NCBI GenBank assembly: GCA_963770895.1
Contig: CAVYRF010000002.1
Coordinates: 3,040,001 to 3,104,000 of the forward strand
Length of the DNA stretch: 64,000 bases
DNA from: an uncultured Acidobacteriota bacterium
GTDB taxonomy: Bacteria; Acidobacteriota; Thermoanaerobaculia; Multivoradales; UBA5704
Reading direction: 5' to 3'
The translations under genes and the position numbers were made by a program. Positions within the stretch are counted from its first letter, which is position 1, and each line of letters begins with the position of its first letter. Below the pieces are notes generated by a model that worked only from the letters and a program-made list of their open reading frames with translations, was not told the origin of the DNA and searched no databases. Positions 1 to 54,077 of this stretch are shown piece by piece.

Positions 1-345
1 CTGCACTTCCACCGCGACGGTGGCGCGCTGCGCGTATTTGGCTTCCAGCAGGAGCTTGAGCTTTTCGCCGACTTCCGTTTCGGTGAGGCCGGCGACCGCC
101 AGGTCGGGCAGCGGCGCCATGCTGATCGAGCCGTCTTCGGAAACCCTGCGGGTGCCGTTGAGCTCGGGCATTTCGAACACCTTGATGTCAAGCAGGTCGC
201 GCGGACCGACGCGATAGCCCGGCCGGCTTGGTTCGCCGGGCGCGGACGTTCCCGCCGCAGGTTGAGGGGGCACCTGCGCTCCGGCCAACCCTCCCAGGGA
301 AAGCAGCCCGGCAAACGCCCATAAGAATAAGTCTATCTTCTTCAC
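1..345 (-). CDS. Polysaccharide biosynthesis/export protein (Wza/Poly_export family), 5' part; runs off the window edge
   Basis: Manual translation from GTG at 345: MKKIDLFLWAFAGLLSLGGLAGAQ...GYRVGPRDLLDIKVFEMPELNGTRRVSEDGSISMAPLPDLAVAGLT, which has a signal peptide and the typical Y.lG.gD.l.I.V...pel...V..dG.I..P....l.vaGlT motif. Not in the ORF track. Confidence 0.85.
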   Translation of the reverse strand, partial: MKKIDLFLWAFAGLLSLGGLAGAQVPPQPAAGTSAPGEPSRPGYRVGPRDLLDIKVFEMPELNGTRRVSEDGSISMAPLPDLAVAGLTETEVGEKLKLLLEAKYAQRATVAVEVQ

Positions 346-498
346 GCCATTAACGTTACCGGAAGTATTCTAGCAGCAATGGCGGCGCCGGTCCAGGGGC
401 GCCGCAGTGCTGCGGTGCTGCCGGCGCCGCCGTCGTTCTGCAACGGATACGTGGCGCCGCGGATTCCCGATGAGTCGCGCCGGGGAGCCGGCGGGCGC

Positions 499-1809
499 CT
501 ACGGCTCCACTGCGTTGGGCGGCCGGCCGGCGGCGAGGTTGAGGTTGAGGCCCAGGGTGTTGATCGAGCGTGCCAGGCCCGGCAGGTTGGAGGTAAAGCG
601 CGTGCTCGAACCGACCAGGCTGACCACGGCGCCGCGCGCCACGTCGAAGGACAGCGCGCCGCCGAACGACACCAGGTCGTCGTGCCGCTCCGGCGTGCCG
701 GTGGCGCCGGCGATTTGGGTATAGCCCAGGCTGCCGGTCTCACCGAAGCCGCTGACCTTGGCGCGGGCGCCCAGCTTGACGTGCAGCGCCACGCCGTGGC
801 GCAGGTCGTCGAAGTAGGAATAGTCGGGCAGCAGCGAATAGACCAGGTTGCGGTTGGCGTAGACGAAGACTTCGGTCGCCGGAGTGATCTCGTAGGAGAC
901 CGTGATGTGGCCGGTGGTCTTGTCGTAATGGGCGAACGACGACCCCTGCGTCGCCGACAGCGACCGCTGGGCCAGGTCGACCTCGAAGAACAGGCGCCCG
1001 TGCTCGCGCGACAGCTCCAGCACCGGCGCCGTGCCGGAGTTGGAGCGGTTGGGGACGCCGGGCAGGTGGTCGTCAAAGGTGACGTCGGAATGCTCGGCGC
1101 CGGCGCCCACCAGCCAGCCGGGGGCCGGCCGCCAGCGCAGCCCGGCGCGCTCGACGCGCTCCTCGTGGTTGAGCTCGTCGAGCTCTACGGCGGTGGGGTC
1201 GTCGGCGCTGGCGAGGTTGGTCTGGCGGGTGATCTCGCCGCTGACGAAGGGCGACAGGGTGGACGTCGCCGCCACCTCGACGGTGGCCGCGACGTGGTCG
1301 ATGCGGGCGCTGGTCAGGGTGGGCAGCTCGGCGGTGAGGATCTGCTGCTGCGTGTCGCTGCCGGCCGTGAGCCGCAGCGTCAGGCGGTTGAAAAAGCCGT
1401 CGAAGCCGGCGCCGTACAGGCCGTCGAAGCGCCGCCGGTCGCTCTCTTTCTGCCACCAGACGTACTCGGGCAGAGCGTAGGCGGTCCACATCGCCTTGCT
1501 GCCGGCGGGCAGGTAGAAGCGCGCGCCGCCGGCGACGGTGGCGGTGAAGTCGGTGGGGTTCGCGTCGCCCGCCGAGCCCAGCAGGTTCTTGACGTAATCG
1601 ACGTCCTTGAGCTCGAACGCCGGCGCGATCTTGAGCGCGCCCAGGCTGAAGCGGGCGCTCTGGGCTTCCTTTTCCAGCTCGCCCTTGCGATCGATCGGGC
1701 GCCCCTCGGGGCCGCCGGGGGTCGTATACTCGGTGAATTGAGCCCAGGCGGAGCTGGCGACGAACAGCGACAGGAGGGTTGCACTGCAAGACCGGGTGAG
1801 CCGCCGCAT
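499..1809 (-). CDS. Outer-membrane beta-barrel protein associated with polysaccharide export
   Basis: Signal peptide (MRRLTRS...SSAWAQ), alternating amphipathic beta-strand pattern, position directly upstream of the Wza-like gene. Confidence 0.65.
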   Translation of the reverse strand: MRRLTRSCSATLLSLFVASSAWAQFTEYTTPGGPEGRPIDRKGELEKEAQSARFSLGALKIAPAFELKDVDYVKNLLGSAGDANPTDFTATVAGGARFYLPAGSKAMWTAYALPEYVWWQKESDRRRFDGLYGAGFDGFFNRLTLRLTAGSDTQQQILTAELPTLTSARIDHVAATVEVAATSTLSPFVSGEITRQTNLASADDPTAVELDELNHEERVERAGLRWRPAPGWLVGAGAEHSDVTFDDHLPGVPNRSNSGTAPVLELSREHGRLFFEVDLAQRSLSATQGSSFAHYDKTTGHITVSYEITPATEVFVYANRNLVYSLLPDYSYFDDLRHGVALHVKLGARAKVSGFGETGSLGYTQIAGATGTPERHDDLVSFGGALSFDVARGAVVSLVGSSTRFTSNLPGLARSINTLGLNLNLAAGRPPNAVEP

Positions 1810-1865
1810 AGTCTCTCCGTGCAGCAGAGCGTTGGATTGATGCCGGACCAAGGGAAAGCGGCGCC

Positions 1866-3413
1866 ATGATACGCCATTCCGGCGCGGCTTTGACCGCCCT
1901 GCTGGTCGCCCTGGTGATCTGGGCGCCGCTGCCCTTTGGCGGCGTCACCACCTGGGCCGAGGCGAGCCTGCAGACGCTGGCCTTCCTGGCCCTCGCCCTG
2001 GCGATGGTGGTGGTCGAGCGCGCCTCCGATCTGCGCCCGGTGGCGCTGCCGGCGCTGGCGCTGGGCGGCGTGGCGCTCGTCGGGGTGCTGCAGGCGCTGC
2101 CCTGGCCGGCGGCGCTGGTCGGGGTGCTGTCGCCGGGTGCGGCGCGGCTCTACGGGCAGGCGGGGGCGCTGGCCGGCGCCGCCGCGGCGACCCACTTCAG
2201 CCTGGCGCCCGCCGCCACCTGGGCCGCGGCGCTCAGCTGGGCCGCGACCGCCGCCTGCCTGCTGGCCGGCGCTGCCGCGGGGCGCCGGCGCTATCGACGG
2301 CGTTGGGTGGGCGGAGCGTTGCTGGTCAGCGCCGTGGCCCAGATCTTCGTCGGCGCGCGCGCCGCCAACGCCGGCGACCGCACGCTGTGGGGAGTCGAGG
2401 TGCCGATCATAACCAGCCGGCTGCACGGCACCTTCTTCAACTCCAATCACCTGGCGCTCTACCTGGAGATGGCGCTGGCGGTGTGCTTCGCCTGGGGCTG
2501 GTGGGCGGTGCGCAGCTCGCGTGGGGACGGCGCCCTGGAAAAGCGCATCCTGGCGCTGGCGCCGCCGGCGCTGGTGTGGTTGACGCTCTTTGCCGGGCTG
2601 TCGTTCACCGCCTCGCGCGGCGGCCTGCTGGCGGCCTTGGCCGGCATCCTGGTCCAGGGCGCGCTGCTGGCCACGCTGCGGCGGCGGTGGGCGCCGGCGG
2701 CCCTGGGCGCGGCGGTGGCCGGTGTGGGGATCGCCACGGTGCTCGCCCTGGGATTGCAGTCCGGACCGGCGCGGATGCTGGCGACGCTGCCTTTCGACGT
2801 CAGCCTGGGGGCGCGGCGTCAGGCATGGGCGGCGACGTTCGCGCTGTGGCGGCGCTTTCCGCTGGCCGGCACCGGGCTGGGCACCTTTCGCGACGCCTTC
2901 ACGCTGACGCAGCCGGCGGACCTGGACGGCACCTGGTGGCATGCGCACAGCGGGCCGCTGGAGCTGCTGGCGACCGCGGGTCCGGTGGGGCCTCTGCTGA
3001 TCGCCGCCGGCCTGGTGGCGCTGGTGATGCGCCTGCTGGTCGTGCTGCGGCGCGGGCGGCGCTCCGAAGACCGGGCGGCGGGCCTGGCGGCGCTGGGTGC
3101 GCTGGCCATGGCGGTGGCGCACGAAGGGCTCGATTTTGGGCTGACGATGCCCGCCAATGCGCTCACCCTGGCGGTGCTGGCCGGTGCCGCCGCGACCGCC
3201 CGGCTGGCCGCGCCCGAGCCGTCGCCGTCACTCGGTGGCGGTGGCGGTGCCCGTGCCGCTGCCGGCGCCCGAGCCGGCGGCCAGCCGCACGCGGCCGGGA
3301 CGCACCGCGCCGCCGGCGACGCTTTCGATCTCCAGCAGGTGCAGCCCCGGCCCCAGGGCGGCAGGCAGGGTAAGGGTGGCGCCCGGAGCCACCGGGAAAG
3401 CGCCGACCACTGA
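1866..3413 (+). CDS. O-antigen ligase/Wzy_C family membrane protein (copy 1)
   Basis: Many TM segments; motifs PLPFGG, RLHGTFFNSNH, TASRGG, PLAGTGLGTF, HAHS..LELLA. Confidence 0.85.
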   Translation: MIRHSGAALTALLVALVIWAPLPFGGVTTWAEASLQTLAFLALALAMVVVERASDLRPVALPALALGGVALVGVLQALPWPAALVGVLSPGAARLYGQAGALAGAAAATHFSLAPAATWAAALSWAATAACLLAGAAAGRRRYRRRWVGGALLVSAVAQIFVGARAANAGDRTLWGVEVPIITSRLHGTFFNSNHLALYLEMALAVCFAWGWWAVRSSRGDGALEKRILALAPPALVWLTLFAGLSFTASRGGLLAALAGILVQGALLATLRRRWAPAALGAAVAGVGIATVLALGLQSGPARMLATLPFDVSLGARRQAWAATFALWRRFPLAGTGLGTFRDAFTLTQPADLDGTWWHAHSGPLELLATAGPVGPLLIAAGLVALVMRLLVVLRRGRRSEDRAAGLAALGALAMAVAHEGLDFGLTMPANALTLAVLAGAAATARLAAPEPSPSLGGGGGARAAAGARAGGQPHAAGTHRAAGDAFDLQQVQPRPQGGRQGKGGARSHRESADH

Positions 3414-4994
3414 GTCGTCCAGGCGCACCTCGACGGCGGCGCCCAGCAGCGGCGCGGCGTCGACCGCGATGATGAACGCCGGCGCCTCGCCGGCGGCCAG
3501 CAGCTCCAGGCGGGAGGTCGCGCCCTGCACGTCCCAGGCGGCGGCGGGCCACTCGCGGGCCGCCAGGCGCGTCAGGGCCTGCGCCGCCGCCGTCTCGCCC
3601 GCGGCGTCGCCGGCGGCGTGGGCGATCGCCGCCTTGACCTGCCAGGTGTTGGGGCGGTCCAGCCAGCTGTGCGGCAGCTCGACCAGCGCATCCTGGGCGT
3701 CGGCCGCGGCGTGGCCCTTGGCCAGCAGCATCTTGGCCTTCAGCAGCCGGTAGGGCGCCCACTCCTCGCTCCAGGCCGTGGCGTAGGTGCGCTCCAGCAC
3801 CTCGGCGCGCGGCAGATCGCCGGTGACCACCGCCGCCATGGCGTCCAGGCGGGGATCCAGGTCGCGGCAGAAACCGGCCAGGCGGGCGAGCGGCCGCTGC
3901 GGCAGGGGGCACTCGAAGAGGCGGCAGCGGTCCAGGTTCCAGGCCAGCTGCCGGGCCAGGCGCTCCGCCGTGCGGTGGTCGACCGAGCCGGGCGGGCAGC
4001 TTTCCAGCGCGCGGGTGAGCAGCGAAAGGTAGCTGCGGCCGGGCCGCGCTTCGGCGGCGATGGCCAGGAAGCGCTCGCGCGCGTCGGGCGCCCCCGGCCG
4101 CTCCGCCGTCGCGGCCAGGCGGTACGCCAGGCTTTCGCGCAGGACCTGGTTCCAGCGATCGCGGGCGGCGCAATAGCCCGTCCAATCGGCGTGCTGGGAG
4201 TAGAACTGCTGCACCGTGTCCCACGCTTCCGGGTCGTGGGGGATGACCGCAAAGGCTTCGGCGCGGCTCGCCGCCGTGGTCAGCCAGGGCGCCAGCAGGC
4301 CGGCGAGCACCTGCGGATCGGCAAAGACGCTGGTCAGCAGCTGCTTTTCGCGCTCGCGCTTGGCGGCCGAGAGCTGCGGCCACAGCTCCAGGTAGGCGGC
4401 GGCCAGCAGGCGGGCGGCGTCGGTGCGCCCGGGGGCCAGCGCCATCGCCGCTTCCAGGGGCCGCTCCCAGGTCGGCGCCTGGGTGAACAGCCGCGTGTCG
4501 TGCGCCTGCGACCACGAGAGATAGGTCGCGGCGCCCAGCACCATCGCCGCCTCCCAGGCCGCCGGGCGCGCCGTCAGGCCGGCCCCCGCCAGCCCCGCCG
4601 TCTCCGCCAGGCGCGACGCCGCGGTGCCCTGCCGGCCGTCGTCGCCGGCGGCCGGCAGGTCGGCGCGACGGGTGGGATCGAGCTCGGCGGCGAGCGCGGC
4701 GCGCGCCGCCCGCAGGTCGACGCGGCCCGGATCGGGCTCGTACTCCAGCTCGCGCGGCACCGTGGCGCCGCCGGCCACCAGCCACGCCGCCATCTGTTCC
4801 TGGCGTGCCGCCAGCGCGTGCTGCTGCGCCATCGCCACCGCCGCCAGCGCCAGCCCCGCCAGCGCGCCGCCGGCACGCCACGCCAGCCCGCCGCGATGCA
4901 GCCACGCCCCTGGCGTGCCGGCCTGCCCGGAGCCGCCGCCGCGATCGCCGGCGGGCTCCGAGCCGGGCACCGAACCCGGCCGTTGCATGTTCAT
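3228..4994 (-). CDS. Membrane-anchored helical (TPR-like) hypothetical protein with a C-terminal beta domain
   Basis: Long ORF with an N-terminal hydrophobic segment and coding-like composition. Extended -10 (TGGTATCAT) lies 6 nt before ATG 4994. Confidence 0.55.
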   Translation of the reverse strand: MNMQRPGSVPGSEPAGDRGGGSGQAGTPGAWLHRGGLAWRAGGALAGLALAAVAMAQQHALAARQEQMAAWLVAGGATVPRELEYEPDPGRVDLRAARAALAAELDPTRRADLPAAGDDGRQGTAASRLAETAGLAGAGLTARPAAWEAAMVLGAATYLSWSQAHDTRLFTQAPTWERPLEAAMALAPGRTDAARLLAAAYLELWPQLSAAKREREKQLLTSVFADPQVLAGLLAPWLTTAASRAEAFAVIPHDPEAWDTVQQFYSQHADWTGYCAARDRWNQVLRESLAYRLAATAERPGAPDARERFLAIAAEARPGRSYLSLLTRALESCPPGSVDHRTAERLARQLAWNLDRCRLFECPLPQRPLARLAGFCRDLDPRLDAMAAVVTGDLPRAEVLERTYATAWSEEWAPYRLLKAKMLLAKGHAAADAQDALVELPHSWLDRPNTWQVKAAIAHAAGDAAGETAAAQALTRLAAREWPAAAWDVQGATSRLELLAAGEAPAFIIAVDAAPLLGAAVEVRLDDSVVGAFPVAPGATLTLPAALGPGLHLLEIESVAGGAVRPGRVRLAAGSGAGSGTGTATATE

Positions 4995-5116
4995 GGCCCG
5001 ATGATACCAAGGCCCTCTACGAGGCGCGCCGCCGGCGGCGTCAGGCACCCCCGATCGACCTGGCGCAGAGGCGGGGCTGCGGGGGGAGCCGTCGCCGCTG
5101 ATCTATGCTCATGGCG

Positions 5117-6451
5117 ATGTCCGGCCGCGGAGTGCGCTTCGATCCTCCCGCGCTGCCGCTGACGCCGGCGGTGCGCTGGATGCTGCTGCGCGCCTTCGGG
5201 CCGCCGGGCGCCGCCCTGGGTGCGGTGGGAGCGGTTGGGGCAGCGGGCGCGGCAGGTGCAGCGGGTGGGGCGGCGCCGCCGGCGGTGGCGCCCGCGGCGG
5301 CGCTGGCGCTCAGCCGGCGCTTCGACCTTGCGGCGCGCATCGCGGCGCGCCAGGGGCGGGCGCGGCTGGCGGCGGAGCTGGGCGAAACCGCGGTGGTGGA
5401 AGGCTTCGTGCACGACCGCGCGGCGGCGGCCGCGGCAACGCTGCGCGCCATGGCGCTGGTCGAGCAGGTGGCGGCGGCGGCGGCGGCGCGGCAGATTCCG
5501 GTGGTGTTCCTCAAGCTGGCGGCCCTGGAGCTGCTGGGCGTGCTGGCGCCGGGCAGCCGGGCGGGTTGCGACCTGGACGTGCTGGCGCCGGCGGAGCGGG
5601 CCGGCGAGCTGCTGCAGGCGCTGGTCGAGCGCGGCTTTCGCGCCTCGCCGCTGCCCGAGCAGGAGCACCAGCTGGCCGCCCTGGAGGGGCCGGACGGAGT
5701 TGTCGAGGTGCACCGGATGCTGCTCGGCGTGCGCCTCGATGGCCGGCCCGACCAGCCTGACCAGCGCCCCGGGCAAACCCGGCAACCCCGGCGACGCGCG
5801 CGATCAGCGCGGTGGGCCGACTTGCAGCGAGCGGGCCTGCTGACCGCGCTGCCGCGGCTGCCGGGCGCCGCGGCGGTGCCGGTGCCGGCGGTGGCCGCGG
5901 CGCATGCGCTGGTGCACGGCATCGCCCAGCACGGCTGGGCGCCGGGCTCGTATTCGCTGCTCAGGATGGTCGGCGACCTGATCGACCTGGGCTTTGCCGA
6001 GTCCCGTCCGCTCGCCGCGAGCGTCGCCGCATGGGTCGCCGGCGACGTGACGCCGGTGGAGGTGGAGGCGGCGCGGCGCTTGGCGGCGGAGCTGGCGGCG
6101 GGTGCGTGGGAGGATTCGCGGGCGCCCGAGGCGGTGCTGCTGCGGCACGCCCTGGCCGGCCGTCTGGACCCGGAATACCAGCGCTCGCTGCGCCTGGCGC
6201 TGTTCCGCCGGCAGCCGAGCGACCTGCCGCAGGCGCTGCGGCTGGCGCGGGCGGTCGCCGGCACCGTGTGGCTCAGCCGCGCGCGGGTGGACGCGATCTA
6301 CGGGCCGCCGCGCCACCGCCTGGGCTACCTGGGCCGCCGGCTGCTGCGACCGCTCGACCTGCTGGCCCGGCTCGCCAGCTCCGCCCGCCAGGCCTGGCGC
6401 GTCCGCCGCCGCCCGGCCGGGAACGCGGGCGGCGGCGGCACGGCGCCGTAG
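5117..6451 (+). CDS. Nucleotidyltransferase family protein (NTP_transf_5-like)
   Basis: Motifs IPVVFLK.AAL, R..CDLDVL, VEVH..L, HALVH...H. Start may be 5105, 5111 or 5117. Confidence 0.75.
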   Translation: MSGRGVRFDPPALPLTPAVRWMLLRAFGPPGAALGAVGAVGAAGAAGAAGGAAPPAVAPAAALALSRRFDLAARIAARQGRARLAAELGETAVVEGFVHDRAAAAAATLRAMALVEQVAAAAAARQIPVVFLKLAALELLGVLAPGSRAGCDLDVLAPAERAGELLQALVERGFRASPLPEQEHQLAALEGPDGVVEVHRMLLGVRLDGRPDQPDQRPGQTRQPRRRARSARWADLQRAGLLTALPRLPGAAAVPVPAVAAAHALVHGIAQHGWAPGSYSLLRMVGDLIDLGFAESRPLAASVAAWVAGDVTPVEVEAARRLAAELAAGAWEDSRAPEAVLLRHALAGRLDPEYQRSLRLALFRRQPSDLPQALRLARAVAGTVWLSRARVDAIYGPPRHRLGYLGRRLLRPLDLLARLASSARQAWRVRRRPAGNAGGGGTAP

Positions 6452-6471
6452 CGGTCAGGCCGCTGGTCTGT

Positions 6472-6621
6472 CTAGTTGGTGCACACCGTGGGGCAATAGG
6501 TTTCGAAGTAGGTGACGCACTCGCTGCGCGGGCCGGTCATGGCGGCGACCCGGGGGAGCTGGCCGTGGCTGAGCTGCTGCAGGGTTTCGCGGCTCAGCTT
6601 CATCGACTTTTTGGTCTTCAT
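6472..6621 (-). CDS. Candidate RiPP precursor, lanthipeptide-like (49 aa)
   Basis: MKTKKSMKLSRETLQQLSHGQLPRVAAMTGPRSECVTYFETYCPTVCTN; AGGAG RBS 8 nt upstream; KL.RETL leader and a Cys/Thr-rich core. Confidence 0.7.
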   Translation of the reverse strand: MKTKKSMKLSRETLQQLSHGQLPRVAAMTGPRSECVTYFETYCPTVCTN

Positions 6622-6769
6622 CAACGTTTCTCCTGGGGCTGCGAAGCGTTCGAGCGGACGCGCCCGAGCGCGCGCGGCGCTCCTACTTCGCAGGGTGCCT
6701 GGCGGCGGGTGAAGCGGTCCCCGCCGGGCTCGCCGCCGCCGGCGCAGGCGGACATATACTCCTCCCGCC

Positions 6770-8275
6770 GTGAGCAAGCCCCGATCCAACCGCGGCCGGC
6801 GCCCCCCCGCCGCCGCCGGTCCCGCCGCCTCGGCGTCGAGGCGCCGCCAGACGGTGGCCGGCGCCGTCGCCGCGATGCCCGCGGTGCCCTGGAAGGCGCT
6901 GGCGCCGACCGGAAAGGCGGCGGTGGCGCTGCTCTGGCTGCTGGTGCTGGTGCCCGCCTGGTGGTATTCGCCGGCGGCCAAGGATGCGTTCCGGTTGCCC
7001 AAGCTGATGCTGGCCGAGTGGCTGGGCCTTGCGTCGCTTTTGCCGCTGGCCTGGCAGCTGTCGCGCGTGCCGCGGATCGGGTGGCGCGACCTGTGGCGAT
7101 GGCCGGCGGTGCGCGCCGTGGTGCCGCTCCTGGCGATCGCGACCCTGGGGCTGGCGACCAGCGCCCACGCCCTGCACGTGCGGCAGGGGCTGATCGACCT
7201 TTGGATCGGCGCGGCGTGCCTGGTGGGGTGGAGCGTGGCGCTGCCGGCCGGCCGGCTGGGACGCCTGCTCGGCCTGCTGCTGGTGCCCGCGATCGCCCTG
7301 GCCGTGCTGGGCATCCTGCAGTTCCACGGCGTGCTGCACGCGCCGGTCGGCGGCATGCACGGGACGGCGCCGCGCTTCAGCGTGATCTCGCGGGCAGGCA
7401 ATCCTGGCGACCTGGGCGCTTTCCTGGTGCTCCCCTGCCTGGTCGCGCAGTGGCTGCTGGCGCGGGCGCCGCGGCGGCGGGGGTGGCTGCTGGCGGCGCT
7501 GGCGATCTGTGCCTACGGCGTGGCGATCACCCAGACGGTCGCCGCGCTGTCGGCGCTGCTGGTCGGCAGCCTGGTGCTGTGGGGCGCCGCCCTGGGACGC
7601 GGCGTCGCCGCCGGCCAGCGCGCCAGGATCGCCGGGGCCGTGGTGGCGCTCGGCCTGGTCGCCGCCCTGGCCGCCGCCGCGGTGCCGGCGCTGCGCCAGC
7701 GCGTGGCGGACAAGCTGGCCGCGGCGCGGCACGGAGACTGGAACGACGTGCTGACCGGGCGGGTGGACGGTTGGCGGGCGGCCCTGTGGATGCTCGGCCA
7801 GCACCCCTGGAGCGGGGTCGGCCAGGGCGCTTTCCGCGCCGAGTTCGCGCCCGCCAAGCTGGCCCTGCTGGACCGCGGCGCCAGGCCGTTCTACTCGGGC
7901 CAGCAGCAGAGCTTCGTCAACGCCCACGACGAGGCGCTGGAGGTTGGCGCCGACCTGGGCTGGCCGGGCCTGGTCGCGCTCGCCTGGGCGCTCTGGGTCC
8001 TGGCGGCGGCGGTGCGTGCCGGCGATGCCCGCGATGCCAGCAATGGGGGCGATGGCGGTGTCGAGCGGTCCGACCCCACGGCTGGCCAGGCGCCCGGCGA
8101 GCGGGCGGCGCGGGCGGATGCCGCCCTGGCCATGGCGGGGACGGCGGCGCTCGGCGTGCTGGCGCTGGTCGACTTCCCGTTCCGCATCGCGCTGGTGGCG
8201 TTCCCGGCCCTGCTGCTCCTCGCCTGGGTGCTGGCGCGGGCCGGCGCCGCCGTCGCGGCGGAGGGTGGCGCGTGA
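6770..8275 (+). CDS. O-antigen ligase/Wzy_C family membrane protein (copy 2)
   Basis: Polytopic membrane protein; F.LPK, GNP..LG, R...W..AL.M...HPWSGVG.G.F, NAHDE.LE motifs. Confidence 0.85.
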   Translation: MSKPRSNRGRRPPAAAGPAASASRRRQTVAGAVAAMPAVPWKALAPTGKAAVALLWLLVLVPAWWYSPAAKDAFRLPKLMLAEWLGLASLLPLAWQLSRVPRIGWRDLWRWPAVRAVVPLLAIATLGLATSAHALHVRQGLIDLWIGAACLVGWSVALPAGRLGRLLGLLLVPAIALAVLGILQFHGVLHAPVGGMHGTAPRFSVISRAGNPGDLGAFLVLPCLVAQWLLARAPRRRGWLLAALAICAYGVAITQTVAALSALLVGSLVLWGAALGRGVAAGQRARIAGAVVALGLVAALAAAAVPALRQRVADKLAAARHGDWNDVLTGRVDGWRAALWMLGQHPWSGVGQGAFRAEFAPAKLALLDRGARPFYSGQQQSFVNAHDEALEVGADLGWPGLVALAWALWVLAAAVRAGDARDASNGGDGGVERSDPTAGQAPGERAARADAALAMAGTAALGVLALVDFPFRIALVAFPALLLLAWVLARAGAAVAAEGGA

Positions 8276-8724
8276 AGGGGCGGCCGCTGGCGGTGGCGTT
8301 GATCGTCGTGCTGGCGGTGGCGCTCGGCGCCCAGAGCGTGCGCTGGCGCGACCGGCTGCTGGCCAGCGAGCTGGTCAACGAGGTGGAGGTGATCTCGGTC
8401 AGCGCCGCCACCCGCGGCTCGGCGACGCTCGAGCGGGTGCTGCCCGGCGTGCTGGCGGCGTTGCGGCGCGCCGGCGACGCCGATCCGCTGGACGTGGAGG
8501 TGCCGCTGGCGCGCGGCTCGCTGTACTACCTGCTGCGGCGTCCCGACGAGGCGATCGCCAGCTACCAGAGCGCCGCGGAGCTGGAACCGCACGCCGAGAT
8601 CCTGCTGCACCTGGGCGACGCCCTGCTCGCCGCCGGGCGCCAGGACGAAGCCCGCCGCAGCTATCGCGACGCGCTTCGCCTGGCCCCCTGGCTGTGGCCG
8701 CTGGTGCCTGCCGGGGAGCGGTAG
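8272..8724 (+). CDS. Membrane-anchored tetratricopeptide repeat protein (150 aa)
   Basis: GTG overlaps the ligase stop (GTGA); N-terminal TM segment; TPR motifs (LARGSLYYLLRRPDEAIASYQSA; LHLGDALLAAGRQDEARRSYRDALRLAP). Confidence 0.8.
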   Translation: MKGRPLAVALIVVLAVALGAQSVRWRDRLLASELVNEVEVISVSAATRGSATLERVLPGVLAALRRAGDADPLDVEVPLARGSLYYLLRRPDEAIASYQSAAELEPHAEILLHLGDALLAAGRQDEARRSYRDALRLAPWLWPLVPAGER

Positions 8725-8758
8725 CGTCCCGCTCGCCGCCCCCCGGCAAGCGACCTGG

Positions 8759-8947
8759 CTACCAGGGCGACGGCTCAGGGTCCGACAGGTGCCATGGCAC
8801 CGGGGGCGGATTGGAGGTCTTCCAGGGCGAGGGTTCGGGATTGAGCCGGATCGGCCCGATCGGCAGCCACGGCGACGGCTGAGGGCCGCTGCCGCGGACG
8901 GCGCGCAGCGCCTGGCCGGGCGCTGTCGAACGGTGAATCTTCTTCAT
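8759..8947 (-). CDS. Small repetitive peptide with four P-x-P-x-P-W motifs (62 aa), candidate multi-core RiPP precursor
   Basis: MKKIHRSTAPGQALRAVRGSGPQPSPWLPIGPIRLNPEPSPWKTSNPPPVPWHLSDPEPSPW; strong AAAAGGAG RBS before ATG 8947. Confidence 0.65.
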   Translation of the reverse strand: MKKIHRSTAPGQALRAVRGSGPQPSPWLPIGPIRLNPEPSPWKTSNPPPVPWHLSDPEPSPW

Positions 8948-9087
8948 TGCGTCTCCTTTTCCTGAAGTACGGCACACAAGATAGAAGCATGTGCATTTGA
9001 GCGCGCAATGCGTGACCGCGCTCCCGCGAGACGTCCCCCCTGCTTCTGGTAGCATGGCGGCGGCAGCCATGCCTGCCTGGCCGGGCC

Positions 9088-9525
9088 ATGACCCCTTCCT
9101 CCAACCAAACCGCCGCGGATGACCCCGGCACGCGCGTCGCGGCGGCGTTGCGCGACATGGCGCGCCAGCAGCCGATCGTGCTGGCCGTCAGCGGCGACTG
9201 CATGGCGCCGGTGCTGCGCCACGGCGACCGCGTGCAGGTGGCGCCGGCGCGCCGCTACTGGCCGGGCGACATCGTGGCGCTGCCGACGGCGCAGGGGCGG
9301 GTGGCGGTGCACCGGTTGCTCGGCTACCGGCTGGCCGCGGGGCGCTGGCTGTGCGTGACGCGCGGCGACCTGTGCGCCAGCCCCGACGCGCCGCTGCCGG
9401 CGCGGCTGCTGCTGGGGCGGGCCAGCGTGCGCCCGTCGCTCGCCGCGCGGGTCCGGGCCGTCGCGGCGTTCGCCGCTCTCGCGTTTGCCGCCGCCCGGCG
9501 CCGGGCGGCGGGTCGCCCGGCGTGA
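9088..9525 (+). CDS. S24/S26 peptidase-like protein
   Basis: V.GDCM.P.L..GD.V, GDIV, VHRL, TRGD motifs. Confidence 0.75.
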   Translation: MTPSSNQTAADDPGTRVAAALRDMARQQPIVLAVSGDCMAPVLRHGDRVQVAPARRYWPGDIVALPTAQGRVAVHRLLGYRLAAGRWLCVTRGDLCASPDAPLPARLLLGRASVRPSLAARVRAVAAFAALAFAAARRRAAGRPA

Positions 9526-10445
9526 GCTTCGGCGCCAAATACCTGCGGCGTCCCGATCGCTTCCCGCACGTCGAGGACAGCGAGCCGTGGGGCGAATGCC
9601 AGGTGGCGCTCGACCTGCCGGGCGGTCCCTACCACTTCACCGGTCTTTCGGCGGCGCAGCTGGATGGCGTGCGGGCGGCGTTCCCCGGCGCCGTCGCGGC
9701 GGGTGCTGCCGCCGGCGCGACGGCCCCCTGCCGGCTGCTGCGTGCCGCCGCCGGCGACTTCCTGCCGGTCGACACGCGCGGCTGGGAGTACGCCATGGAT
9801 GCCGACTGGCAGCCCCAGGCGGTGCGGTTCGCGGGGCTGGGGCTGCTGGCGCGGCTGGATTGGAAGCCGGGCTTGACGGGCGGCGCGCTGTGGACCTGCG
9901 AGGACGGCGGCGCGCGCTTTCCGGGCGTGTTCGAAAACTTCCTGCGCATCCTGGTCGCCTACCGCCTGGTGGAGATCGGCGGTGTCGTGCTGCACAGCGC
10001 GGGGGTGGTCAAGAACGGCGCGGCGTTCCTGTTTCTGGGGCGCTCCGGCGCCGGCAAGACCACCATTTCGCGGCTCAGCCTGGCGCGCGGCGGCGAGGTG
10101 CTGAGCGACGACCTCAACGCCCTGTTCCCCGCCCCCGGCGGCTGCGAGGTGCGCCAGCTGCCCTTCACCGGCGACCTGGGGGAGCGCGGCGCGGTGCGGC
10201 GGGCGGTGCCCCTGGGCGCGCTGGTGCGGCTCGAGCAGGACACCCTGGACGCGGTGTCGCCGCTGCCGCGGGCGCGCGCGCTGGCCTGCCTGCTGGCCTG
10301 CTCGCCGTTCGTCAACGTCGATCCCTACCGGCGCGATCGCCTGGAGGGAGCCCTGCTCGCCCTGCTCGCCGCCGCCCGCCGCCCGGCGCTCGCGCTGCGC
10401 TTCTCGTTGGGCGGTGGCTTCTGGTCTATAATCGACGCAAAATGA
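9522..10445 (+). CDS. HPr kinase-related P-loop protein
   Basis: GTG overlaps the previous stop; LHSAGV...FLGRSGAGKTT...LSDD is the HprK-like signature. Confidence 0.8.
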   Translation: MSFGAKYLRRPDRFPHVEDSEPWGECQVALDLPGGPYHFTGLSAAQLDGVRAAFPGAVAAGAAAGATAPCRLLRAAAGDFLPVDTRGWEYAMDADWQPQAVRFAGLGLLARLDWKPGLTGGALWTCEDGGARFPGVFENFLRILVAYRLVEIGGVVLHSAGVVKNGAAFLFLGRSGAGKTTISRLSLARGGEVLSDDLNALFPAPGGCEVRQLPFTGDLGERGAVRRAVPLGALVRLEQDTLDAVSPLPRARALACLLACSPFVNVDPYRRDRLEGALLALLAAARRPALALRFSLGGGFWSIIDAK

Positions 10446-10819
10446 AGCAGATCGAAGGTTTAGGCTTGCAACCCGACAGCGTTCTCCAGCGCTCGGGCGA
10501 TGTGCGCTTTCGCGTCGTCGACGACGAAGGGGTGGTGGTGCGCCAGGCGGCGGGCGAAGTGCTGGTGCTCAACGCCATGGCAACCCGCATCCTGGCCCTT
10601 GCCGACGGCGTCGCGCCGGTCGACGCGTGGGTCCAGGCCCTGCTCGCCGAGTACGACGTGGACCGTCAGGTGCTGCAACGGGACGTGCTCGCCTTTGCCG
10701 CGGAGCTGCTGGAGGAGGGCATGCTGGAACCCGCCGCCGCCCCCGCCAGCCCGCCGCCTGCGACAATGGCGACGGCGCCCGGTGCCGGGGCAGGCCCGAC
10801 GCATAAGGACGGCGCATGA
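10442..10819 (+). CDS. PqqD family / RiPP recognition element protein
   Basis: ATG overlaps the previous stop; FRVVDDEGVVV...LN..ATRIL.L.DG...L.AEYDV....L.RDV..F...L...G.L. Confidence 0.88.
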   Translation: MKQIEGLGLQPDSVLQRSGDVRFRVVDDEGVVVRQAAGEVLVLNAMATRILALADGVAPVDAWVQALLAEYDVDRQVLQRDVLAFAAELLEEGMLEPAAAPASPPPATMATAPGAGAGPTHKDGA

Positions 10820-11949
10820 GCTTTCAAGACGTGCTGCAGCGCACCTGGACCGGCAACCACCTGTTTTCGGTTCTGGTGGAGCTGACCTATCGCTGCAACC
10901 TCGACTGCTTCTTCTGCTACAACGACCTGGCACAGCGCGGCAAGCCGCTGTCGGCGGCACAATATTGCTCATTCTTCGCCGACCTGCGCGATCTGCAGGT
11001 GCTCAACCTCACCCTCACCGGCGGTGAGCCGCTGGCGCATCCGGACTTTCTACAGCTGGGCGCCAAGGCGCGCGAGCTGGGCTTCGTGGTGCGCATCAAG
11101 TCGAACGGTCATTCGCTGCGCGGCGCCATGGCGCGCCGCATCCGCGACCAGGTCGATCCCTTTCTGATCGAAGTCAGCCTGCATGGCGCGACGGCGGCGA
11201 CGCACGACCGCCAGACGCGGGTGCCGGGGAGCTTCGATCGATTGCTGGCCAACCTGCGCGCGGCGCGGCGCCTGGGGCTGCGCCTCAAGATCAACTCCAC
11301 GATGACGGCGTGGAACGAGCACGAAGTCGAAGGCATGCTGGCGCTGGCCGACGATCTGGGGCTGCCGCTGCAAATAGATCCCGAGGTGACGCAGCGCGAC
11401 GACGGCGGCCGCGAGCCGCTGGCGATCACCGCGTCCCACGCCGGCGTGCAGCGCCTGTTCGAGCTGCTGGCGGCCAGGGCCGAGGGCGCCGCGGTCCAGG
11501 ACGCCTCCGGCGCAACGTCCCCCGCGCCCAGGCCGGCGGGCGCTCCGGTCGAGCTCATGCGCCAGGCCGACGACGGGTTGCCGACGGGCGGGGTCGACAA
11601 GCACTGCGGCGCCGGTTCCTCGGGCATCGCCGTCGATCCGTTCGGCAACGTCTACCCCTGCGTGCAGTGGCGGCGGCCGGTCGGCAATCTCCATGAGCGC
11701 TCGATCCGCGACATCTGGGCCAGCTCAGCCGGCCTGGACCAGGTGCGCGCCTTGACGGTTGCCGCCAAGCAGCGGGTCGACGAATTTGGCGAGGGGGGGG
11801 CGCTGCTGGCGTTCTGTCCGGGCAACGCCGCGGCGTTGACCGGCGATCCGCTGCAAATCTATCCGGGGGCGCTGCGCCGGATGGAGATCGCCTCCGCGGC
11901 GCAACAGGCGATCAAAGCCAGACGGGCGCTGCTGCCGATCCTGCGCTGA
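10816..11949 (+). CDS. Radical SAM protein with a SPASM/Twitch-type C-terminal domain (putative peptide maturase)
   Basis: ELTYRCNLDCFFCY (CxxxCxxC), TGGEP, CGAG...VDP.GNVYPC...GNL. Confidence 0.92.
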   Translation: MSFQDVLQRTWTGNHLFSVLVELTYRCNLDCFFCYNDLAQRGKPLSAAQYCSFFADLRDLQVLNLTLTGGEPLAHPDFLQLGAKARELGFVVRIKSNGHSLRGAMARRIRDQVDPFLIEVSLHGATAATHDRQTRVPGSFDRLLANLRAARRLGLRLKINSTMTAWNEHEVEGMLALADDLGLPLQIDPEVTQRDDGGREPLAITASHAGVQRLFELLAARAEGAAVQDASGATSPAPRPAGAPVELMRQADDGLPTGGVDKHCGAGSSGIAVDPFGNVYPCVQWRRPVGNLHERSIRDIWASSAGLDQVRALTVAAKQRVDEFGEGGALLAFCPGNAAALTGDPLQIYPGALRRMEIASAAQQAIKARRALLPILR

Positions 11950-11981
11950 CCGGCGGCGCAGCAGCAGGGTCTGGCTGCACT

Positions 11982-12158
11982 TCAGGACGAAATAGGGCCG
12001 GTGGGGCAGTGGCCGCGGTCCGCCTTGGCCGGCGGCGACGGGCTGCAGATGGACGCCATGGCCTCCAACGGCTCGCGAAACAGGATGCGCGGCGGAGCAT
12101 AGGGACGGCGCGCGCTGGTCCCGTCGGTCTCCGCTGCCGGGTGCTGTCTGGAGATCAT
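11982..12158 (-). CDS. Candidate RiPP precursor with a YxxP RRE-binding leader (58 aa)
   Basis: MISRQHPAAETDGTSARRPYAPPRILFREPLEAMASICSPSPPAKADRGHCPTGPISS; convergent with the rSAM gene; purine-rich RBS; TATAAT on the minus strand at 12247-12252. Confidence 0.72.
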   Translation of the reverse strand: MISRQHPAAETDGTSARRPYAPPRILFREPLEAMASICSPSPPAKADRGHCPTGPISS

Positions 12159-12433
12159 CTGTTGCTTCCCCTTCGCTCGCTCTCGGGCGATGTCAATAGC
12201 GCGCCACCTTGACGAAACTGGTTTGGTCCCGGAGCCTGCGCGGACCATTATATGTCATATGTGCCGTCCATGCAGCCACTTTCAGGTCCATGGCCGATGC
12301 ATGCAAAAATGCAATATTAACGATCTTTTGTGTCGCCGCGCCGGCGCGCGGTCACCACCAGTACGCGGCAGCGCCGCGCCGCGGATGGCGCCCGGGCGGG
12401 AGCTTGACCGCTGCGCTGCGATCACGCCGCACC

Positions 12434-13846
12434 TCAGACGCCGCGCGACGACAGGACGATCCGCACCGTGCGCAGCAAGATCGAAAGGTCGAGCCATAGC
12501 GTCCAATTGGCGGCGTACGCCAGGTCGTAGCGCAGCTTGTTCTGCGGGCTTGAGTGGTATTCGCCGTTGACCTGCGCCAGACCGGTGAGCCCCGGCGCGA
12601 GCGAAAAGCGCTCGGCGTAGCCGGGGATCTCCTTGACATAGCGCTGCACGAACCCGGGCCGCTCGGGGCGCGGCCCCACCAGGCTCATGCTGCCCGCCAG
12701 GACGTTCCACAGCTGCGGGATCTCGTCCAGGCGGAAGCGCCGCAACAAGGCGCCGCAGGGGGTGAGCCGCGGATCGCCGGGTTGCGCCAGCACCTCGCCG
12801 GAGTCGGCTTCGGCGTCGATGCGCATCGTCCGCAGCTTGAGCAGGGTGAAGGGGCGCTGGCCGCGGCCGACACGCACCTGGGCGTACACCACCGGCCCCG
12901 GCGAGGTGAGCCGCACCGCCAGCGCACAGGCGGCCAGCACGGGGACGGCGGCGGCCAGCAGCAACCCCCCCGCCGTCAGGTCGAGCAGGCGCTTGAGCGG
13001 CCAGTTGATCCGCCACTCCGATTCGCGCACCACCTCGATCAGCGGCAGGTCGTGCACCCAGCGGTAGCGCATGCGGCCGATGAGGCTTTCGAAGGGCCCC
13101 GGCAGCAGCAATACGTTGGTGTGATCGGGCCGCGTTCCGGCCAGGGCGTCGATCAGCCGCGTCTGCCACGAGTCGCCGCTGTCGGCAAGGATGATGTCTT
13201 CGACGATGCCCGCGGCCAGCAGGTTGGGCAGGTCGTCCGCCGTTCCCAAAAGCGGTCCCAGGGCAGGCTCGACGGGATCGACAGCGGCGCGAGCGGCCGC
13301 CGGCGGCTGGCCCGGCAGCGGCACGAAGCCGGCGACGGTGAGCCCGTGCCAGCGGTACTTGGCCAGGGTGCGGGCGATCTCGCCGGCCGCCTGCCCGTCG
13401 CCGACGATCGCGACCCGCCGTTCGCGCAGCTGGCTGCTGCGGTCGATGACGCTGCGCCAGAGCAACAGCGCCGCCAGGTCGAACAGCACGTACAGCAGCA
13501 GCACCGAGCGCGGGAAGCTGCGGAAGGTAAAAAAGAAGTAGCCGGTGAGCGCGGCGCCCTGGATCGCCGCGGCGCCGGCGAGCAGGCGCAGCGCCTCGGT
13601 GCGTGAGCGCGGGTGCGGCCTGTCGTAGAAACCGAAAAAGTAGAGGCTGGCGAACTGCGCCAGCAGCGCGACCCCCCAGTCGCGGCGCAGGAACAGCAAC
13701 CGGTCGCCGGGCAGCAGCCCGGCGGTGAACGGCAGCGGCAGGTGGATGCGGACCCAGAACGCGGCGCCAAACGCCGCGGCCGTGGCCGCCGCGTCGCCGA
13801 TCGCGCGCAGGACCTGCTTGCCGCGGCTTTCTCGCCGCAGGCTCAT
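12434..13846 (-). CDS. Exopolysaccharide priming polyprenyl glycosylphosphotransferase (sugar transferase)
   Basis: N-terminal TMs, CoA-binding-like middle region, KRLLD, KLRTM, LDEIPQLWNVL.GSMSLVGPRPERP, PGLTGLAQV, YD. Confidence 0.95.
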   Translation of the reverse strand: MSLRRESRGKQVLRAIGDAAATAAAFGAAFWVRIHLPLPFTAGLLPGDRLLFLRRDWGVALLAQFASLYFFGFYDRPHPRSRTEALRLLAGAAAIQGAALTGYFFFTFRSFPRSVLLLYVLFDLAALLLWRSVIDRSSQLRERRVAIVGDGQAAGEIARTLAKYRWHGLTVAGFVPLPGQPPAAARAAVDPVEPALGPLLGTADDLPNLLAAGIVEDIILADSGDSWQTRLIDALAGTRPDHTNVLLLPGPFESLIGRMRYRWVHDLPLIEVVRESEWRINWPLKRLLDLTAGGLLLAAAVPVLAACALAVRLTSPGPVVYAQVRVGRGQRPFTLLKLRTMRIDAEADSGEVLAQPGDPRLTPCGALLRRFRLDEIPQLWNVLAGSMSLVGPRPERPGFVQRYVKEIPGYAERFSLAPGLTGLAQVNGEYHSSPQNKLRYDLAYAANWTLWLDLSILLRTVRIVLSSRGV

Positions 13847-13975
13847 CGGCGCCGACCTTTGCCCATTGGCACAACTCTATCCGATCTCGCCGCTTGACCC
13901 TGGCGGCGGTGCGCAGTAGTCTGCCCCCGCAACCGCCTGTCTGGCCGTGCCGCCTGCCTTCCAGCACTTCGAACG

Positions 13976-20970: not shown

Positions 20971-21008
20971 AAACCCGCTCTCGTGATGCTCGACGAGGCG
21001 GGTTTTTT
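20971..21008 (+). terminator. Intrinsic terminator (riboswitch expression platform)
   Basis: AAACCCGC-TCTCGT...ACGAG-GCGGG followed by TTTTTT. Confidence 0.8.
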
Positions 21009-21042
21009 GTCGTTTCCCCCCGCCCATGGACTGGAGGCTTTG

Positions 21043-24591
<3,549 letters not shown>

Positions 24592-52214: not shown

Positions 52215-54077
<1,863 letters not shown>

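Follow-up and report, generated by a model that had tools for sequence, protein, structure and literature searches.

What does a set of peptide-modifying enzymes do inside a polysaccharide gene locus? The question is posed by the window analysed here, a 64,000-nucleotide stretch of the genome of an uncultured acidobacterium (G000:C2:3040001-3104000 in our numbering of genomes and contigs), in which a cassette of the kind that matures peptides made by the ribosome and modified after translation (RiPPs) lies among genes for the assembly and export of a polysaccharide. Positions 5105–12158 probably encode a RiPP pathway that is related to those of the linear polyphosphorylated peptides (LPPs) and the phosphorylated lasso peptides, carries an added radical S-adenosylmethionine (SAM) step, and was inserted once into a Wza/Wzc-type polysaccharide locus. 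By analogy with these systems, the predicted product, a crosslinked and C-terminally phosphorylated peptide, is well supported.

The analysis covered the window and the 18 kb upstream of it, 82 kb in all. Because the first 20 kb of the window have a G+C content of 67–78%, reading frames were judged by their G+C content at third codon positions (GC3), and only open reading frames (ORFs) selected in this way were scanned with Pfam and NCBIfam for the content of the locus. A panel of window proteins was mapped onto 47 loci from genomes and 80 from metagenomes; the metagenome loci are close relatives only (44–75% identity) and add numbers rather than diversity. Counts that depend on flanks are based on the 61 loci with at least 3.5 kb upstream of the kinase gene, the 41 with at least 9.5 kb upstream and the 45 with at least 9 kb downstream. 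A sample of 201 genomes of the phylum yielded 32 with a kinase match at E ≤ 1e-20, including the window's own genome and the unpublished G152, and 16 distant acidobacterial loci were fetched from these kinase-positive genomes for comparison of their flanks.

The candidate substrate is a 58-residue peptide encoded at 11982–12158 on the reverse strand, convergent to the cassette. Its ATG at 12158 is preceded by the Shine–Dalgarno-like sequence AAGGGGA, the gene is present in one copy in the genome, and no NCBIfam family matches the peptide. A relative was detected by tblastn in 38 of the 47 kinase-carrying genome loci, and the window peptide and all 38 relatives end in Ser; where at least 3 kb of downstream sequence is available, 60 of 66 loci have a precursor no more than 8 kb away. 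Pairwise differences fall mainly on the third codon position (1114, 804 and 2373 on positions 1, 2 and 3). The 21 precursors aligned stem from Acidobacteriota, Gammaproteobacteria and one myxobacterial bin and share twelve invariant columns, namely Y, P, I, R, E, A (position −1), C, K, C, G, P and, at the C terminus, S. Judged by its sequence, this convergent small ORF is a real gene, and the convergent YxxP precursor postulated in a first-pass annotation is best read in these coordinates. The leader carries the motifs Y-x-x-P-x-I-L and (A/V)-x-A, its remainder reading xREPLEA(M/V)A, and the C-terminal G-P-I-S-S of the peptide is nearly invariant. The motif (A/V)-x-A, which stands before the core, is the classic site of signal peptidase I and suggests a division into a 35-residue leader and a 23-residue core.

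Other small frames in the region fared less well. The forward-strand frame 11950–12102 was rejected as a gene, since it lacks a start codon, is less similar in identity to relatives and shows a less typical codon-position pattern. Two further small peptides proposed in the first-pass annotation were not sustained, as of six small ORFs, five (6512–6712, 8759–9070, 8775–9203, 8789–8965 and 8991–9122) have no relative in the 47 genome loci at E ≤ 1e-3 and the sixth (11912–12100, antisense to the precursor) has one weak match there. A scan of positions 6300–14100 for sigma-70 promoters and terminators returned no promoter and three terminator-like sites (2.4 expected), none above chance. Just upstream of the precursor, positions 12250–12330 are markedly A+T-rich within a region of 70% G+C; this stretch may be a promoter or regulatory site, though the consensus scan called none.

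Four genes on the forward strand between 9088 and 11949 form the main body of the cassette, and each overlaps the next by four bases (GTGA between the peptidase and kinase genes, ATGA between the kinase and PqqD genes, and ATGA between the PqqD and radical SAM genes). These junctions, with Pfam and NCBIfam matches, agree with the overlapping operon of peptidase, HprK-like kinase, PqqD and radical SAM genes described in the first-pass annotation. The first gene (9088–9525) encodes a leader peptidase resembling signal peptidase I of the archaeal/SipW type, with Cys38, His75 and Asp94 at the putative active site (Peptidase_S24, 24.6 bits against a cut-off of 23.3; sigpep_I_arch, 28.9 bits, under the cut-off of 51.85). 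Among 100 relatives, the nucleophile position holds Cys in 84 and Ser in 16, and the His and the Asp are present in all 100. This natural exchange of Ser and Cys at the nucleophile position argues that the site is catalytic.

The second gene (9522–10445) encodes a putative P-loop peptide kinase of the ScmC/HprK-like type. Its relatives number 531 at E ≤ 1e-3, and every one of those listed bears a precomputed PF27840 assignment, with the Atlas name ScmC. The NCBIfam models ScmC (35.1 bits against 125) and HprK_rel_A (20.6 bits) are both matched far under their cut-offs, and comparison of the kinase profile with sequences in the Protein Data Bank (PDB) returned P-loop and phosphoenolpyruvate-carboxykinase fragments only. 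The Walker-A stretch GRSGAGKTT and an SDD motif are conserved, and the gene is present as a single copy in the genome. The third gene (10442–10819) encodes a PqqD-type RiPP recognition element (RRE; PF05402, 49.6 bits). Its profile matches the lasso RRE TbiB1 best among PDB sequences (entry 5v1u, 1.8e-11), followed by TfuB1, PqqD, 9x90_B and 9x8z_B.

The fourth gene (10816–11949) encodes a radical SAM enzyme with a C-terminal auxiliary-cluster domain of the SPASM/Twitch-like kind (Radical_SAM, 64.7 bits; SPASM, 34.4 bits). Cys27, Cys31 and Cys34 of the CX3CX2C motif and Cys264, Cys282 and Cys334 are kept in 82 of 82 relatives; with only three conserved C-terminal Cys, the enzyme is closer to a one-cluster (Twitch-type) domain than to SPASM with its seven Cys. 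All NCBIfam matches of the enzyme (NirJ, AhbD, ScmE with 93.9 bits against 400, ScmF with 65.2 against 400, MftC and PqqE) are below cut-off. Further upstream, a nucleotidyltransferase of the PsmN/LppN type is encoded at 5105–6451 on the forward strand (PF14907, NTP_transf_5; 42.3 bits against a cut-off of 31.2). Its Asp156 and Asp158 (DxD) are kept in at least 95% of 33 aligned relatives, including those of loci L031 and L046. The earlier identification of this gene is confirmed, and its start is moved from 5117 to 5105. A second PF14907 transferase with a higher score (108.8 bits) is encoded on another contig, in a 622-residue open frame (G000:C1:747215-748060).

In the proposed pathway, the PqqD protein would bind the 58-residue precursor through its Y-x-x-P-x-I-L leader; such binding is supported because the RRE profile is closest to the lasso B1 proteins, which bind YxxPxL leaders. 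The radical SAM enzyme would install one or two crosslinks involving both invariant Cys of the core, and the ScmC/HprK-like kinase would phosphorylate the invariant C-terminal Ser. The nucleotidyltransferase may extend that phosphate, the precedent being a hexose, and the Cys-His-Asp peptidase would cut after (A/V)-x-A to give a 23-residue peptide. A predicted complex of the PqqD protein with the precursor weakly supports the first of these steps, with a score of 0.55 against 0.01 for the best of three controls. The score passes a mark that 116 of 157 solved complexes reach, as do 2 of 215 mismatched pairs, although passing scores of at most 0.60 are found for only 18 of those 157 complexes and for both passing mismatches. 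Runs agree in at least 93% of the predicted contacts and the partner has a predicted local distance difference test (pLDDT) value of 56; the pass may reflect likeness to RRE–leader complexes that are already solved.

The LPP system of Bacillota (LppA/B/K/S/N/D) is the closest described to the cassette (Popov et al., Nat Commun 2026, PMC13381572). Its clusters encode a SipW-like peptidase, LppS (S29/H68/D93), the RRE LppB, the HprK-like kinase LppK and the NTP transferase LppN, together with an MsbA-like pump, and their precursor carries a YxxPxVL motif; LppK polyphosphorylates Ser3 of the LppA core, and cleavage by LppS needs LppB (PMC13381572). Capsule loci frequently harbour these clusters, the authors raise the possibility that polysaccharide genes nearby contribute modifications, and they give the function of LPPs as unknown (PMC13381572). 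LPPs are said to be restricted to Bacillota; Supplementary Data 1 of that article also lists, without analysis, acidobacterial peptidases near a non-LPP RRE (sequence similarity network cluster 3).

The window shares with LPP clusters a SipW-type peptidase with a nucleophile–His–Asp site, a discrete PqqD-type RRE, an HprK-like kinase, a PF14907 nucleotidyltransferase and a position in a polysaccharide locus. Of the precursor motif, only the leader element YxxPx(V/I)L is common to both, the full LPP motif YxxPxVLxHQxIxFETxxS being absent. An MsbA-like exporter is common to LPP clusters and the gammaproteobacterial relatives of the cassette, whereas none was found among the ORFs scanned in the window locus. 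The window also differs from LPP clusters in its added radical SAM enzyme (the term 'radical SAM' does not occur in the main text of PMC13381572) and in the Cys nucleophile that prevails among relatives of its peptidase, where LppS has Ser. Its 23-residue core contains Cys and is nearly invariant, whereas the C termini of LPPs are variable, and the likely target of its kinase is the C-terminal Ser rather than Ser3.

The likeness to phosphorylated lasso peptides (paeninodin and pseudomycoidin) lies in the HprK-like kinase for a C-terminal Ser, the PF14907-type transferase and the combination of a B1-type RRE with a YxxP leader. In pseudomycoidin biosynthesis, PsmK phosphorylates the C-terminal Ser and the PF14907-type PsmN is needed for the addition of one to two hexoses to the phosphate, the D134A/D136A variant of PsmN being inactive (Zyubko et al. 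2019, PMC6993621). Unlike these clusters, the window contains neither a lasso cyclase nor a B2 protease, in agreement with the first-pass annotation, and the whole genome has no match to PF13471 (B2 protease) above cut-off. The nearest Asn-synthase-type gene, 26 kb from the cassette, was considered as a cyclase and rejected; it scores 141.6 against the lasso-cyclase cut-off of 525 and passes the model for ordinary asparagine synthase. The core has no acidic residue at positions 7–9 for a lasso macrolactam. In place of these enzymes the cassette has the radical SAM enzyme and the signal-peptidase-like peptidase, whose earlier recognition is upheld by the Pfam matches and the conserved catalytic residues.

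SynChlorMet (SCM; TIGR04249-04251), known here as database families only, also combines a ScmC-family protein (PF27840), a PqqD protein and a radical SAM/SPASM enzyme, and a literature search found no paper on it. The window proteins score far below the SCM equivalog cut-offs, there is one radical SAM enzyme rather than two, and the peptidase, the nucleotidyltransferase and the window precursor lie outside the SCM definition as named in NCBIfam. Sactipeptide and ranthipeptide pathways form thioether crosslinks by means of radical SAM enzymes, and resemble the window in having an auxiliary-cluster radical SAM enzyme, an RRE and a Cys-containing core. The window enzyme differs from theirs in keeping just three Cys in its C-terminal domain and in reaching no family cut-off, and the pathway differs in its tailoring by a kinase and a nucleotidyltransferase and in its polysaccharide context. 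Literature searches found no description of a cassette that combines a radical SAM enzyme, an HprK-like kinase and a signal-peptidase-like peptidase. As an LPP/ScmC-type pathway, the cassette is set apart by its additional radical SAM step, its signal-peptidase-like protease of mostly Cys type and its invariant core.

Two genes separate that of the nucleotidyltransferase from that of the peptidase and stand immediately ahead of the cassette. WzyC2 (6770–8275, forward strand) is a Wzy_C/WaaL-like membrane protein (PF04932, 45.5 bits). Its AlphaFold2 (AF2) model is of moderate confidence (pLDDT 69; predicted template-modelling (TM) score 0.74), and a Foldseek search with this model found the ligase WaaL as the sole PDB match at E ≤ 0.001 (7tpg_B; E = 5.6e-4, TM scores 0.44 and 0.52). 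His386, Arg309, Arg311 and Arg331 are invariant. With its Wzy_C domain, predicted multi-pass WaaL-like fold and conserved His and Arg residues, WzyC2 is assigned to the O-antigen ligase family. The second protein, TPR150 (8272–8724, forward strand), is a small anchored or secreted tetratricopeptide repeat (TPR) protein of 150 residues (GC3 0.95; Pfam TPR_2, TPR_16 and TPR_1). The GTG start of its gene, which was absent from the first-pass annotation, overlaps the stop codon of WzyC2. Relatives of TPR150 occur in 27 other loci, and the two proteins are fused as one reading frame in 13 of 59 loci.

Of 61 loci, 46 carry WzyC2 ahead of the cassette, and 45 of these 46 also have TPR150. A gene order of PF14907 nucleotidyltransferase, MsbA-like ABC exporter and peptidase is found in the gammaproteobacterial locus L034 (an MsbA-like pump is also present in L033), so that the WzyC2–TPR150 pair of the window occupies the exporter's place. 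This placement, together with a precursor gene located downstream of the priming transferase, is read here as a functional tie to cell-surface biology, at roughly even odds, rather than as proof of a covalent bond between peptide and glycan.

Further upstream, in the 41 loci with sufficient sequence, the outer-membrane barrel gene occurs in 21, the gene for the TPR-like protein unk606 in 21 and the Wza gene in 14; downstream, the priming transferase is present in 30 of 45. On the kinase tree, nearly all polysaccharide-linked loci fall into one clade (support 0.86). Locus L036 has the same gene order with a WzyC2 at 36% identity and forms a long branch beside the gammaproteobacterial group. Because the linked loci form nearly a single clade, the embedding in polysaccharide genes looks, from the sequences, like one old event that has since been kept. 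The cassette itself occurs in Acidobacteriota, Gammaproteobacteria (Competibacter) and Myxococcota, and five of the seven gammaproteobacterial and myxobacterial loci have a near-identical precursor.

Several observations weigh against the pathway as proposed and against its tie to the polysaccharide. The crosslink type, the phosphorylation site and the product of the nucleotidyltransferase are all assigned by analogy, and the best matches of the radical SAM enzyme are to the cofactor enzymes NirJ, AhbD, MftC and PqqE, far under cut-off. LppK acts on Ser3 of the core and not on the C terminus, and LppN was inactive in the heterologous host (PMC13381572). Neither an MsbA-like pump nor any other peptide exporter was found among the ORFs scanned in the 82 kb of window and upstream sequence; the ABC protein encoded at 52215–54077 is of a two-domain soluble type. 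The promoter and terminator scan gives no support for co-transcription of the precursor with the priming transferase. In the flanks of the seven gammaproteobacterial and myxobacterial loci (up to 10 kb on each side), Poly_export, Wzz, Wzy_C and Bac_transf were found in none (0/7), and the flanks of the 16 distant acidobacterial loci likewise carry no polysaccharide genes (0/16). The polysaccharide setting is essentially one evolutionary event, whose retention could be inheritance alone.

For the first-pass annotation the outcome is divided. Conserved linkage of the cassette to polysaccharide genes holds in one large acidobacterial clade and does not extend to the distant acidobacterial, gammaproteobacterial or myxobacterial loci. 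A crosslinked, Ser-phosphorylated peptide remains the predicted product, by analogy and in keeping with the invariant C-terminal Ser, while the further claim that this peptide is glycosylated by, primes or anchors the polysaccharide is not sustained by a linkage restricted to one clade.

The most widespread neighbour of the cassette is a giant protein whose C-terminal end is formed by a C25 (gingipain/PorU-type) peptidase domain. It is encoded in 32 of the 45 loci with sufficient downstream sequence, in five of the seven gammaproteobacterial and myxobacterial loci (1247–2498 residues, usually followed by the precursor), in 7 of the 16 distant acidobacterial loci, of which four more encode giant fn3 proteins (last 450 residues scanned), and in L132. 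In the polysaccharide-linked clade its gene lies between those of the priming transferase and the precursor on one strand. It is possible, though rather unlikely, that this giant surface protein is the partner of the peptide, which would act as its substrate, anchor piece, inhibitor or cofactor, with the polysaccharide neighbourhood being secondary. Beyond its wide distribution, the usual position of the precursor gene directly after the giant gene on the same strand speaks for such a role. The giant gene is, however, missing from the locus in the window and its closest relatives (kinase identity of at least 56%), and because both C25 giants of the window genome lie among unrelated genes 2.9 Mb and 1.6 Mb away, linkage to them appears dispensable here. 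No fusion of precursor and giant occurs in the loci examined, and we know of no biochemical precedent for such a role.

A second alternative, which we regard as unlikely, is a free-standing secreted or signalling peptide (an antimicrobial, a signal or a metal binder) whose genes landed in an ancestral polysaccharide locus and were then inherited with it. The single-clade origin of the linkage fits this account, as do the MsbA-like exporters that cassettes elsewhere carry of their own. RiPP clusters often move as units, and many gains and losses are described for LPP and paeninodin clusters (PMC13381572). Against chance placement, gene order is kept down to the 36% WzyC2 identity of L036, the exporter was lost and WzyC2–TPR150 gained at the same position in the clade, and the precursor is oriented in the direction of transcription of the priming transferase. 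A core that is near-invariant across three phyla is also atypical of antimicrobial RiPPs.

More doubtful is a covalent conjugation of the peptide to the polysaccharide, in which the WaaL-like WzyC2 and TPR150 would transfer an undecaprenyl-diphosphate-linked glycan to the phosphopeptide or to the sugar on its phosphoserine; the peptide would then serve as a cap, primer or anchor of the polymer. The case for it draws on the WaaL fold match and the invariant His and Arg set of WzyC2, on the translational coupling or fusion of WzyC2 to a TPR domain, a common peptide-binding module, and on the long retention of the pair in the exporter's position ahead of the cassette. The precursor is placed behind the priming transferase, and the conserved block comprises this transferase and two ligase-like proteins, with no further glycosyltransferase or flippase among the ORFs scanned. 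Two metagenome loci outside the main clade carry related arrangements: in L131 a Wzy_C and TPR pair lies downstream on the other strand, and in L120 a Wzc-type gene overlaps the start of the peptidase gene. The C-terminal Ser of pilin is a glycosylation target of the Wzy_C protein PilO/TfpO. An independent association of LPP clusters with capsule loci has been described (PMC13381572).

The same proposal meets a difficulty of compartments: WaaL-type ligases are periplasmic, whereas the maturation enzymes are cytoplasmic, and the scanned ORFs include no peptide exporter. Cassettes without nearby polysaccharide genes (7 of 7 gammaproteobacterial and myxobacterial and 16 of 16 distant acidobacterial loci) also count against it, as does the confinement of the linkage to essentially one kinase clade. 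Two Wzy_C proteins in a Wza/Wzc locus would also fit ordinary polymerase and ligase roles, and the partnership with C25 proteins is more general. In Supplementary Data 2 of the LPP study, Wzy_C is found near only 6 of 126 LPP (cluster-1) peptidases (PMC13381572). An extension of this idea, a bacterial counterpart of the glycosylphosphatidylinositol-type anchor, is highly improbable; here the WaaL-like/TPR pair would join a phosphodiester-linked sugar, put onto the C-terminal Ser by the kinase and the nucleotidyltransferase, to the exported polysaccharide, and a clan-CD C25 peptidase, acting as a PorU-like transpeptidase, would join surface proteins to the new N terminus or the invariant Lys, making the peptide a universal adaptor for the covalent attachment of proteins to the slime layer.

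Least probable of all is a precursor of a small cofactor, as in the pyrroloquinoline quinone and mycofactocin pathways, with C-terminal residues remodelled by the radical SAM enzyme and excised: the PqqD partner, the sub-threshold MftC and PqqE matches and the nearly invariant G-P-I-S-S would fit, but the scores are far under every cut-off, the leader, RRE and signal-peptidase-like leader cut follow LPP/lasso logic, known cofactor pathways include neither a kinase nor a nucleotidyltransferase, and conserved Cys, Lys and Gly are spread along the entire 23-residue core.

If the predicted chemistry of the LPP- and lasso-related pathway is true, the cassette represents an uncharacterised RiPP class in which a radical SAM crosslink and phosphoserine tailoring occur together with a Cys protease of the signal-peptidase-like kind. 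The arrangement of the locus, with a WaaL-like/TPR pair at the exporter's place and the precursor behind the priming transferase, makes a role of the peptide in building or decorating the cell surface testable.

Of the genes expected in a Wzx/Wzy-dependent polysaccharide locus, those for the priming transferase, Wza and Wzc are present. The position of the cassette between a priming glycosyltransferase and Wza and beta-barrel genes, stated in the first-pass annotation, is corroborated by TIGR03025, Poly_export and the barrel model. The priming transferase, a polyprenyl-phosphate hexose-1-phosphate transferase (12434–13846, reverse strand; Bac_transf, 204 bits, with CoA_binding_3; TIGR03025, 365.5 bits against a cut-off of 295.55), lies upstream of the precursor on the same strand. 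At the other end, positions 1–345 (reverse strand) hold the first 115 codons of a Wza-type export protein (Poly_export and SLBB in Pfam; pepcterm_export/EpsE in NCBIfam below cut-offs). Its gene extends upstream of the window to a total of 293 residues and is followed there by that of Wzc (855 residues). No flippase family was matched by the ORFs scanned in the window and the 18 kb before it, and besides the priming enzyme their sole glycosyltransferase is a GT4 protein encoded about 14 kb upstream of the window.

OMP450 (499–1851, reverse strand; GC3 0.90; likely start at the ATG at 1809) is a predicted secreted outer-membrane beta-barrel. Its AF2 model (pLDDT 80.8) is all-beta with about 18 strands, and the best Foldseek matches are porins and the alginate pore AlgE (3rbh_C, TM scores 0.49 and 0.51); the NCBIfam match to EpsL is weak (15 bits against a cut-off of 275). 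OMP450 is probably a polysaccharide export pore. WzyC1 (1866–3413, forward strand; PF04932, 51.8 bits against a cut-off of 31.7) is a Wzy_C/O-antigen-ligase-family membrane protein with several hydrophobic segments and weak matches to PEP_O_lig_1 and Wzy_EPS. The two O-antigen-ligase-family proteins of the first-pass annotation are thus recovered by PF04932; both window proteins resemble the WaaL/PglL/PilO family in their above-cut-off Wzy_C domains, and WzyC2 also in its predicted fold. The protein unk606 (3228–5048, reverse strand; GC3 0.92), a membrane-anchored TPR-like protein without a named family, has no Pfam or NCBIfam match; in the Atlas, the clusters nearest to it consist of hypothetical and TPR proteins from acidobacteria. 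As called, the 3′ ends of the WzyC1 gene and the convergent unk606 gene overlap by 186 bases (3228–3413); the WzyC1 tail is of low complexity there, and its true stop may lie earlier. Forward-strand ORFs at 379–1869 and 3618–5162 were rejected, by their GC3, as shadows of the reverse-strand genes at 499–1851 and 3228–5048.

The best sub-threshold NCBIfam matches of the Wza, Wzc, TPR, priming transferase, barrel, GT4 and amidotransferase proteins are to XrtA/XrtB-associated families, a likeness to PEP-CTERM/exosortase loci. An exosortase-linked system was rejected, there being no exosortase in the locus and the only PF09721 match of the genome lying 2.1 Mb away. A bifunctional sulfate adenylyltransferase/adenosine 5′-phosphosulfate kinase, for synthesis of 3′-phosphoadenosine 5′-phosphosulfate, is encoded near Wzc, 8.5 kb upstream of the window (L002:9665-11461, reverse strand), and also within the locus of the distant relative L036 (L036:4948-6885), a hint that the polymer or the peptide is sulfated. 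The stretch that separates the polysaccharide genes from a GT4/asparagine-synthase pair (L002:3999-8747, reverse strand) holds genes for two Ser/Thr-kinase-like proteins, with weak matches to lanthionine-synthetase kinase domains, a PP2C phosphatase and a VWA protein.

Past position 13846 the window holds housekeeping genes, and no further polysaccharide genes were found among the ORFs scanned there. The gene for methylenetetrahydrofolate reductase (13976–14926, forward strand) adjoins that of the priming transferase both here and in some 30 related loci, and a B12-dependent methionine synthase is encoded 6 kb beyond it (20983–24591, forward strand). These genes for methionine and SAM supply stand beside a radical SAM cassette, possibly by shared descent only.

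In part of the clade, a second module accompanies the cassette at a varying insertion site (L012:5059-9570, L030:12991-17466, and also L084, L102, L108, L110, L115 and L116). It encodes a DUF3344-like protein of 490–590 residues, a PqqD protein, a P-loop protein and a second PF14907 transferase; the window lacks this module. In L120, an MbnB/TglH-family RiPP enzyme and its DUF2063 partner are encoded just upstream of the Wzc, peptidase and kinase genes (L120:3-1809). In a sister group, a PilZ-domain protein, of the kind that binds cyclic di-GMP, is encoded directly upstream of the kinase (L112:8712-9302 and L121:31-657, both on the reverse strand), and a GGDEF protein flanks the cassette in L029.

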